Shown here in pieces: positions 14,827-18,125 of a stretch of 64,000 nucleotides of DNA. The position numbers and the translations under genes were made by a program. Below the pieces are notes generated by a model. That model did not search any database and was not told the DNA's origin. It saw nothing but the letters and a program-made list of their open reading frames with translations. Location: contig OX597818.1 in NCBI GenBank assembly GCA_951406725.2, positions 37,324,001 to 37,388,000 of the forward strand, written 5' to 3'. Each line of letters opens with the position of its first letter. Within the stretch, counting starts at the first letter, position 1. The DNA comes from Octopus vulgaris (lineage: Eukaryota).

Positions 14827-15755
14827 TTGGGTCATCCCATAAATAATGCAGTTTTTTCAATTGCATGAAAAATTGGAGGGGGACGGGATAAACTACCTGC
14901 ATCAACTTGCTATAAAAGCAGGTAGTAATTTTACCTTGTCCTTATCCTTATTTACCTTGTCCTTATTCTTAGTGCAAGTTTTGAAGAGTGCAATTCGATT
15001 TTAAGTTATTTTTTCAGTTATAATGAAAGTGACAAAGGAGCATATTCAGCATATTTTGCTTTATGAGTTCAATAAAGGCAACAGCACAACAGAAAGTGCA
15101 AAGAATATTAATGCAGTATATGGGGTTTGGACAATAAGCATGAGCCAATATCAATGGTGGTTCCAGAAATTCCAAGCCAGAAACTACAGCCTAGAAGATG
15201 AGCCTCATCCTGCAAGACCTGTAGTGCTCGACAAAGATGTCCTGCAAACCTTGGTGGAGCAAAATCCCATTGTAACTGTTGAGGAACTAGCAGAGAATCT
15301 TGTATTTGGTCATTCAACCAGTCATTCCGGTCAGCACTAGAAGAAAAACAACAATCTTTGGTTTCAAGACAAAAGGTGTTCTTCCACCTGGTTAATGCTC
15401 AACCACATACAGCGAAGATGACATTCCAAAGGCTGGAGCAGTTTGAATGGGAAACGATGCCCCACCCACCATATTCACCAGACATTGCTCCATCTGATTA
15501 TCATTTATTCCACAGTCTTCAAAATCATTTGGATGGAAAAAATATAAGTTCTGTAGATGAGATCAGAACAGTTAGAGGAATATTTTTCATCACAGAGTGA
15601 ATTTTGGAAGAGGGGCCTTACAAGTCCACCAGCTAGATGGAAGAGCATTGTAGAAAATGAAGGAGAGTATATTTTAAATTAAAAAAGAACTATATCTTAA
15701 TTTTGGAAAATAAAAAAAGTATTAAAAAAACCACATTATTTATGGGATGATCCAA
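14827..15755 (+). mobile_element. Internally deleted mariner (DD34D) transposon with transposase pseudogene
   Basis: TA|TTGGGTCATCCCATAAATAATG ... CATTATTTATGGGATGATCCAA|TA. ORF 15023-15340 is the HTH N-terminus (ILLYEFNKG...WFQKF...LEDEP); ORF 15358-15600 has HPPYSPDIAPSDYHLF. Confidence 0.95.
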
Positions 15756-16168
15756 TACTTTGGTGGTTAATTTTACTATTACCATGTATGGTAGTATTTC
15801 TTTGCCAAACACAAACCACACTAGCTTCATAATAACAATTCTTACTTTAGTAGCCAAATCATTTTGAAACATTCTGAGAAAGTTTTTCAAAATATCTCCA
15901 CCACAACCATTTAACACAAGACTTTTCTTCCTATTCTGTACAAAAGTAATCCTTTGTAATGATAAAATAATGTTGTCAGCTGGTATTAATCTCAGGAAAT
16001 TTAATAATAATGCTTACTACACTTCTTTTATTTGTTTCTGCAGTGAGGAGCCCATAGTTTACAGCAGTGGTTCCCAACCTGTGGTCTGCTGACCCCTGGT
16101 GGCCCACAGAGGTAGTACTGGGGGTCTGTGAACTAAATTCAAAATTTCATATATATATATATATATAT

Positions 16169-16474
16169 AAACAATTGCAGCATGAAAGGTGTTTATAAGC
16201 CATTTAAGAAACACATAATAACCGTTAGATCCACTTCAACATTTAAATTTAATTTGTCAAAATATTTTCGTCGCTTTGAGATTGCGACCTGTTCACTGAC
16301 AAAACTACGTGCTGCATCTCTTATTTTGATAAATTAAATTCAAATGTTGAAGTGAATCTAACAGTTTTTGTGTGTTTCTTAAATGGCTTATAAACACCTT
16401 CCACGCTGCAATTGTTTTCGTTCCAGCACATGATCTCAGATCAAGTTACTCGCTATGCAAGTACATCTCCGTAA
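16169..16474 (-). mobile_element. Fold-back element in (TA)n, probable Penelope-like terminal relic
   Basis: About 96-bp inverted arms 16169-16264 / 16322-16417, one-sided extension to about 16474, (TA)n on both sides, hammerhead-like motif inside. Confidence 0.65.
16253..16303 (-). ncRNA. Minimal type I hammerhead-ribozyme-like motif, G3-C8 variant
   Basis: Minus strand reads UUUGUCA-GUGAACA-G-GUCGC-aaucucaaa-GCGAC-GAA-AAUAUU-U-UGACAAA: 7-bp stem I, core, 5-bp stem II, GAAA, palindromic stem III. Confidence 0.55.
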
Positions 16475-16541
<67 letters not shown>

Positions 16542-16960
16542 AGGATAAACATATTAAAAGGGGGCTGTGAGAAAACTCATTTAAATATAAGGGATCCTTG
16601 GTCGTGAAAAGATTGGAAACCACTTGTTTTCAGTAACCACATTCACCTATTGTCTTTTGGCCTGATATCTTCGACATATCTCCAGATTCTCTACTCTACC
16701 CTAACGTTTCTCTCTCTCTCTTTCTTTCCCATTTACTTTCTTACCCACCCTCCATGAATACATCACATAATCATTAATTTAGTGGGGTACTTTTGAAATA
16801 GTAAAGCCATTAAACTATCACCCTGTGGTCATACAAAATTTTCTTCGACTTACTATACTCCTAAGTCTACGTAGTTGAAGGGCCTTTCATCATATAATCA
16901 AAACATAATTCTCTTTTCTGATCAGCACACTTTATTTTTGAATATATCAAATAATAATTT

Positions 16961-17175
16961 AAGGCAGCGAGCTGGCAGAAACGTTAGCATGCTAGGCAAA
17001 ACGCTTAGAGGTATTTTGTCTGTCTTTACATTCTGAGTTCAAATTCCGCTGAGGTCGACTCTGCCTTTCATCTTTTCGGGGTTGATAAATTAAGTACCAG
17101 TTGTGCACTGGGTTTGATCTAATTGACTGGCCCCCTCCCCAAAAAATTCTGGGCCTTGTGCCTAAGAGTAGAAAC
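16961..17175 (+). mobile_element. tRNA-headed SINE, family B
   Basis: AAGGCAGCGAGCTGGCAGAAACGTTAGC...CTGAGTTCAAATTCCGC...GCCTTTCATCTTTTCGGGGTTGATAAATTAAGTACCAG; several copies in the window. Confidence 0.85.
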
Positions 17176-17711
17176 AAATTTATCAATTATTACTACCTGC
17201 CAAGAAAGATAACCAAAATTCAGATCACTAAATTACTGTGTAGAAAGGCTTCAATAATTCTTCCAATGCTTTTAAAAATAACCTAGGCATTTAAAAAAAA
17301 ATTAATTCATTGAAAATTACAAGATAACAATTCCCTAGGAATTACAGCTTTGGTTAATTAGAACAGAAAGGAGACTGAATTTGTTGACCTTTCGCAAAGT
17401 AAGTTCTTGACTCGACCATTTCCATTTAGTTGGTTGTAGACATTTGTAAAAGTTTTCCCATGTCATGAAAACTGTCATTGACATTATTGAATTCCAGTTG
17501 TATACACTAATTCATTAGCTTCAGAATAAATAGTGTCCTGACTCGTGTCGTAGCACCAACTAAGGACAGCAATGTCTTAGGTTTTTAACTGTGGTGAAAA
17601 AGGAGAGGTATACCTAAAGATGGATTAAACATAAATGTTCATTAAAATGATTCTTAAAACTTAAACCCAGACAAGCATTTTTCAAATATTCTCAGCTATT
17701 TTTGAATTGGT

Positions 17712-18125
17712 AAAGGCAGTGGATTGACAGTATTGTTAGAGAATTAGAAAAATGCTTTGTGTCATTTGGTCCTGCACTTTGCATTCTCACTTTGCGCAGA
17801 GGCGGTACCATAGCCAATGAGGGTTATCCGAGGCGTGGTTATTGCTAGTTGAAAACTTTGCATTCTCAGTTCAAATCCTGCCAAAATCAACTTTACCTTT
17901 CATTTTTTGAAGGTTGATAAGTATTAATCAAGTAGTGGGGTTGATTGCTCAGTAGAATTTTGTCCGTCTTTACATTCTGAGTTCAAATACCACCAAGGTT
18001 GACTTTGCCTTACATCCTTTCGGGTTTGAGGAAATAAGTGCCAGTTAAGTACTAGGATTTATGTTATCAACTAATCCCCTATCCCTAAATTTCAGGCCGT
18101 GTGCCTCTAGTAGAAAGGATTATTA
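17712..18125 (+). mobile_element. Two adjacent degraded family B SINE copies; the first is interrupted by the U4 retrocopy
   Basis: Repeated GTTCAAAT B-box-like and CTTTCAT/TACATCCTTTCGGG body motifs. Confidence 0.65.
17789..17859 (+). pseudogene. 3'-truncated U4 snRNA retrocopy
   Basis: CTTTGCGCAGAGGCGGTACCATAGCCAATGAGGGTTATCCGAGGCGTGGTTATTGCTAGTTGAAAACTTT matches the first ~70 nt of metazoan U4; flanked by direct repeat ACTTTGCATTCTCA (17776-17789, 17855-17868). Confidence 0.9.

Follow-up and report, generated by a model that had tools for sequence, protein, structure and literature searches.

A hammerhead-type motif with a G3-C8 core in the terminal repeat of a Penelope-like element family of Octopus vulgaris

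Results

The DNA analyzed here (the window) is a 64-kb stretch of Octopus vulgaris contig OX597818.1. It contains a 306-bp fold-back made of two short terminal-repeat (pLTR) copies joined 5' to 5', one of which has a tail. The minus-strand copy (16169..16320) is short-ended, running from a likely cap-derived G at 16320 and a start A at 16319 to the first of two 3' end classes (~+150). The plus-strand copy (16322..16474) is inverted and 5' truncated, beginning at ~+55 inside stem III of the motif described below and reaching the long 3' end (+207). The two arms (16169-16264 and 16322-16417, 96 nt) are 92% complementary, and a 57-nt tail is present on the plus-strand arm only (16418..16474). The first 31 codons of the parent open reading frame (ORF) lie at 16383..16474 on the plus strand, with a stop codon in the window copy. 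The (TA)n target sequence, for which no strand applies, flanks the insertion on the left (16149..16170) and right (16475..16540). This 306-bp fold-back is a typical insertion of a Penelope-like element (PLE).

Kinase exons on the plus strand flank the element at ~10.9 kb and ~27.2 kb, the 27-kb exon giving a Pkinase match. From its motifs, we take the host kinase gene to be DYRK1/minibrain. With complementary arms situated between kinase exons, the intronic fold-back setting described in the original prediction was confirmed. Since the motif lies on the minus strand between plus-strand exons, the host pre-mRNA carries it in antisense orientation. Both the PLE insertion and the TA tracts around it are nested in an older element (16066-16626) with short terminal inverted repeats, hAT-type MITE-like by eye. 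A U4 snRNA match at 17788-17931 (77.5 bits; gathering score, 46) has a degenerate 3' part, overlaps a dispersed repeat, and is probably a U4-derived retrocopy. Decayed transposase fragments, presumably mariner-like given their motifs, are found in the same intron at 15005-15600.

Descriptor matching and folding identified a minimal type I hammerhead motif with a G3-C8 core on the minus strand of the fold-back (16253..16303). Stem I (7 bp) pairs 16303-16297 with 16259-16253. The core GUGAACA (16290..16296) carries the flipped 3-8 pair (G3 at 16296, C8 at 16291) and is followed, within 16270..16289, by an extra G (16289), the 5-bp stem II (16288-16284 with 16274-16270), and loop II. The segment 16260..16269 holds GAA (16269-16267), the palindrome AAUAUU (16266-16261), and U17 (16260), placing the predicted cut at the 16260/16259 boundary of the same strand. 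The stems, GUGAACA, extra G, palindrome, and U were therefore as originally described. The invariant hammerhead core residues U4, G5, A6, A9, G12, A13, A14, A15.1-U16.1, and a non-G at 17 are all present in the window motif. In contrast, the literal CUGANGA (C3 and G8) is absent from the motif and from the first 100 family matches listed. The active hammerhead fold includes a Watson-Crick 3-8 pair; such a pair is found here, and it covaries among homologues.

The motif was the sole match across the 64-kb window when a descriptor permitting any Watson-Crick 3-8 pair was used, so that the N3-N8-tolerant scan proposed at the outset returned this motif alone. Local shuffles yielded 0/200 matches with 7/5-bp stems and 3/200 with 5/4-bp stems. 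The folding z score was -3.2, with no equally stable sequence among 200 shuffles. An Rfam search over 15000-18000 (E<=10) gave no hammerhead match. This result, together with thousands of family motifs whose core is not CUGANGA, bears out the expectation that CUGANGA searches overlook the motif.

A first look at the 2.8-Gb genome gave 4,561 candidate copies of the element, 40 of which were scored. The core pattern with positions 3, 7, and 8 free had 7,704 exact genome matches (arms counted, not insertions), versus 7 for controls. Among the first 100 of these listed, 93 carried G3-C8, 7 had single departures, and none had C3-G8. A sample anchored in the 3' part of the element (82 loci and 122 distinct arms, among them a duplicated insertion represented by five near-identical copies) had G3 in 71/75 and C8 in 74/80 arms. 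Within the motif, a minor letter reached at least 10% at four loop II sites, one stem II CpG site, and one stem I site, such that loop II accounts for four of the six polymorphic sites. The sole common non-CpG stem variant (stem I, 18/95) retains pairing as U.G. No letter besides G3 and C8 occurred at 4% or more in any of four public runs, which bear the labels of four organisms; these runs are contigs, and in one run the core is covered by a single contig. G3-C8 is the family state, with stems kept, and the family-wide check called for by the original prediction came out in its favor. However, family copies are ~90% alike and the family is young, so constancy of the motif within it is weak evidence on its own. 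The inverted junction is not the same in every copy; many copies consist of a single arm, some with target duplications. The 3' ends fall into two classes, ~+150 and ~+207; of 43 inverted pairs, 38 combine a member of each class.

The parent element encodes one ORF with reverse transcriptase (RT) and C-terminal GIY-YIG domains, represented by a 1025-aa open frame with YVDD and DK motifs at locus L307. This ORF matched PF01541 above the cut-off (25.4 bits) and gave no match to Pfam RVT_1. At a second locus (L330), the terminal repeat continues in frame into the ORF; therefore, the last 92 nt of the repeat are the first 31 codons. Two features by which PLEs are recognized were found: a terminal repeat containing the ORF start (partial tandem), and an inverted copy that is truncated at its 5' end, with a tail on one side only, as in those 38 of 43 inverted pairs and as described for PLEs in the available part of PMC8557442. 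Together with the RT/GIY-YIG ORF, which begins within the terminal repeat, they corroborate the Penelope-like origin proposed initially. An acceptor-like sequence precedes the start, and no spliced leader was seen. None of the eight parent copies examined had an intact 5' hammerhead at the ORF start; a two-ribozyme transcript for the G3-C8 family is inferred, this arrangement being seen in the sister family described below.

Homologues of the parent included RT- or GIY-YIG-labelled proteins, some from marine animals (120 listed); the best named homologue among those listed is labelled Octopus vulgaris (52% identity). A search of viral contigs found no relative. The Neptune-like families of the same genome, its most abundant GIY-YIG elements, were considered as parent and rejected, as they share no DNA similarity with the element except incidental nearby copies. 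The tandem arrays of hammerhead-bearing units expected of a non-LTR retrozyme were not seen at the loci examined, where copies are single or inverted. The RT3-RT4 spacing is 131 residues in the parent versus 62 in a same-genome Neptune-like family. Despite their C-terminal endonuclease, the ORFs of L307 and of the sister-family locus L308 are longer than a Neptune-like family by ~70 residues in the RT3-RT4 interval, resembling the insertion-in-fingers of N-terminal-endonuclease (EN) PLEs. From these sequences, the two may belong to an as yet unnamed PLE lineage.

The sister family has 58% identity over the RT query and open frames of up to 1,312 aa, and it grouped with the G3-C8 family in an RT-EN tree with support of 98/99 (L322, from which no RT frame was extracted, was omitted). 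Its hammerhead lies at the homologous place and has the extra G and U17 of the G3-C8 family. Among the first 100 listed of 3,879 matches, 98 carry C3-G8 (motif, for example, at L308:6392-6440). One stem II pair differs by a compensated change from G-C to A-U. Full 5' repeats were present in 3/3 sister copies. At position 9, the first 100 listed comprise 92 with C, 5 with A, and 3 with T despite many long open frames, and C9 recurs in the metagenome relative L317; this C9 would be either a tolerated core variant or a sign of dispensable cutting. The canonical core occurs in 5 of the first 100 listed sister copies and in 14 relics.

Searching for C3-G8 within the flanks of the G3-C8 family returned 14 genome matches, all of them decayed relatives that are other, older elements. 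None of the 14 continues into the family's 3' part, and several instead lead into a sister-type ORF start. In one relic (L351), CUGAUGA sits within identical stems I and II. Given C3-G8 in both the sister family and these older relics, C3-G8 is the ancestral state and G3-C8 the derived one.

Eleven metagenome relatives were scanned with positions 3, 4, 7, 8, and 9 free. Five yielded one core each, and in all five the 3-8 pair is Watson-Crick (three C-G and two U-A). In the other six, several of which end short of the 3' sequence, that scan found no core; in one of the six (L325), a core was found only by a scan demanding a Watson-Crick 3-8 pair. Across the lineage motifs tabulated, G5, A6, and G12-A13-A14 are kept in 9/9, together with a non-G at 17, and a single relative (L318) has G4. 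The extra base is present in 9/9 motifs and U17 in 8/9. The original prediction had called both atypical; they are in fact normal for the lineage and also occur in published PLE hammerheads. The 3' region of L323 holds a related hammerhead with U15.1-A16.1 replacing A15.1-U16.1 and the palindrome UAGCUA. Same-genome Neptune-like families (L068, L070, L071, L074, L085, L112, and L293) carry minimal hammerheads with U3-A8 or canonical C3-G8, and an uninterrupted 781-aa frame is present in many copies of one such family.

Across homologous elements, the 3-8 pair covaries among G-C, C-G, and U-A, and on this comparison selection on the fold appears well supported. Two earlier claims gain from it: that C3G and G8C are mutually compensatory, given the covariation seen in the sister family, relics, and marine relatives, and that the motif represents a selected non-canonical hammerhead-type fold, given family-wide G3-C8 alongside C3-G8 and U3-A8.

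Of 122 arms, 46 begin at -3..+10, and there is no excess at the cut site (4/122 within 3 nt versus ~3 expected). The base before +1 is C in the template (T in L307), whereas in short copies it is G in 11/17 of the sample (p = 6e-4). Of 767 non-C matches, the first 100 listed include 81 with G. Short copies begin with this non-templated G ~60 nt ahead of the cut site, and the window copy carries it at 16320. Copying of the cap by RT is established retrotransposon behavior, and we infer that the G arose in this way. Taken together, the copy ends and the extra G indicate that the templates were likely capped and uncut, and short copies were likely made from such RNA. A splice-site origin of the 5' end is the less parsimonious account, as the copies have no more than a single G in common upstream. 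Drosophila Penelope has an internal promoter, according to the available part of PMC2377424.

In the natural 207-nt unit, pair probability was predicted to be 0.69-1.0 for stem I and at least 0.996 for stem II. In contrast, within the window fold-back the predicted stem I pair probability was at most 0.001. With the fold-back predicted to sequester stem I, and with an orientation opposite to that of the host gene, the window copy is probably inert. Several features weigh against activity in general. The lowest-energy fold includes a competing G3.U17 wobble (-13.0 versus -11.6 kcal/mol). The AAUAUU palindrome, through which stem III could form only across two RNAs, has a very weak self-duplex energy of -0.2 kcal/mol, and the evaluated dimer reached -23.2 against a two-strand minimum of -31.3. 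The extra base is G, in contrast to the A, C, or U of the PLE consensus as given in the available part of PMC4209133. The lineage also tolerates core damage, namely, C9 in the young sister family and G4 in one relative.

As far as the available parts of PMC4209133 and PMC11167929 describe them, metazoan PLE hammerheads are slow and possibly require protein. Engineered C3G/G8C partially rescued a PLE hammerhead that needs PLE protein (PMC11167929, in part), and an engineered G3-C8 hammerhead was reported to have higher activity when position 17 was G rather than C, a result stated without data in the part of PMC3884650 consulted. This suggests that a non-C at 17 may ease the 3-8 flip. Catalysis by the G3-C8 hammerhead of the family is likely.

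Discussion

We favor, as probable if well short of certain, the reading that the motif represents a hammerhead carried in the terminal repeat of a PLE family that passed from an ancestral C3-G8 to G3-C8. In the parent it would be a ribozyme under selection, slow and dependent on protein or on dimer formation, and the intronic copy would be a by-product predicted not to cut. In the proposed sequence of events, a repeat-borne promoter would start capped RNA at the equivalent of 16319, 23 nt ahead of G3. The element protein would nick (TA)n DNA and prime reverse transcription within the RNA at ~+150 and ~+207, on both strands. A cDNA reaching the cap would gain a G, and one stopping early would give two copies inverted 5' to 5', of which one has a tail; a pair of internal priming sites accounts for the inverted copy and the one-sided tail (PMC11167929, available part). 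Because the templates keep the whole hammerhead, cutting would lie off the copy-making path. It would more likely be late or rare, for example, to trim tandem precursors or to decap the RNA and so limit translation.

The same uncut templates are what a fold selected for something other than cutting would leave, such as a leader structure for protein binding or translation control in which positions 3 and 8 must pair but catalysis is vestigial. The C9 fixed in the young sister family and found again in L317, the G4 in L318, and the lack of effect of hammerhead mutants on insertion in vitro in another PLE (PMC11167929, in part) point the same way. However, all nine lineage motifs retain G5, A6, G12-A13-A14, and a non-G 17; the covarying 3-8 pair belongs to the active fold; and the canonical core persists in a minority of sister copies and in the relics. 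We therefore regard a purely structural role as a serious contender, though an unlikely one. Loss of the ribozyme in the family founder, with changes at 3 and 8 complementary by coincidence, appears improbable. In its favor, each single change is near-lethal to activity (10^5-fold for G8C), so that the path crosses a valley, and copies ~90% alike are too young for a strong test of selection. Yet two random core changes would give a Watson-Crick 3-8 pair in only ~0.4% of cases (1/78 x 1/3), the rest of the core, both stems, and the palindrome are intact, and subfamily variation lies in loop II. A miniature inverted-repeat DNA transposon or hairpin-RNA locus with an incidental motif, as TA repeats flanking 96-nt inverted arms might suggest, is very hard to credit: the junction varies, many copies are single arms, some have target duplications, and the sequence forms the 3' terminus of an RT-GIY-YIG element whose ORF begins within it.

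On the question of why PLEs retain hammerheads, this genome offers a natural rescue series whose members have matching stems (the C3-G8 ancestors, the G3-C8 family, and the C9 sister family), as well as intact-looking sister ORFs and a statistical record of copying from uncut RNA. Thousands of motifs escape CUGANGA searches, and some PLE families regarded as hammerhead-less may need to be rescanned with a free 3-8 pair. A broader synthesis, which we put forward tentatively as more doubtful than not, would make this the first natural, massively amplified G3-C8 hammerhead, in a PLE lineage that samples three Watson-Crick 3-8 forms and tolerates C9 and G4. The flip would be allowed by U17 avoiding a G3-C17 trap, attenuation of the ribozyme would be deliberate and its action gated by protein, and the genome, with its thousands of cap-marked copies, would document that PLEs copy uncut, capped RNA.

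No natural G3-C8 hammerhead was found in the searchable literature, outside of which some directly relevant core-variant studies fall. Natural 3-8 covariation in hammerheads does exist, the variant given in the available part of PMC3088659 being U3-A8, and a natural U3-A8 variant is also found among the metazoan PLE hammerheads of PMC4209133 (available part). With those hammerheads, as presented in the same part of that paper, the octopus motif shares its site in the terminal repeat, an extra base between 9 and 10.1, G10.1-C11.1, a palindromic loopless stem III, and a U17 that is common there (24/56 by our own count). It differs in that G3-C8 occurs in 0/56 of the Fig. S3 motifs and in its extra G, the consensus there being H; the published descriptor would overlook a G3-C8 core.

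The C-terminal-EN PLEs Nematis and Neptune, as covered by the available part of PMC8557442, share with the octopus element an RT with C-terminal GIY-YIG and a CX2-5CxxC linker, as well as inverted 5'-truncated copies and a (TA)n bias. The octopus linker spacing is Nematis-like, by eye only. In contrast to these clades, the octopus element has DKS rather than DKG and a divergent RT4, and its RT3-RT4 spacing exceeds that of the same-genome Neptune-like family.

Relative to Poseidon PAc of Anolis, as far as the available part of PMC11167929 extends, G3-C8 is a laboratory mutant there and the natural state in the octopus family. The PAc ORF begins in stem II, whereas the octopus ORF begins ~56 nt past the cut site, and the tail is 30-40 nt in PAc versus 57 nt in the octopus element. 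According to the same source, the two nevertheless have in common a hammerhead near the ORF start, an AT-rich target, priming on both strands, and a tail set by two internal RT start sites, with uncut RNA as the main template in vitro.
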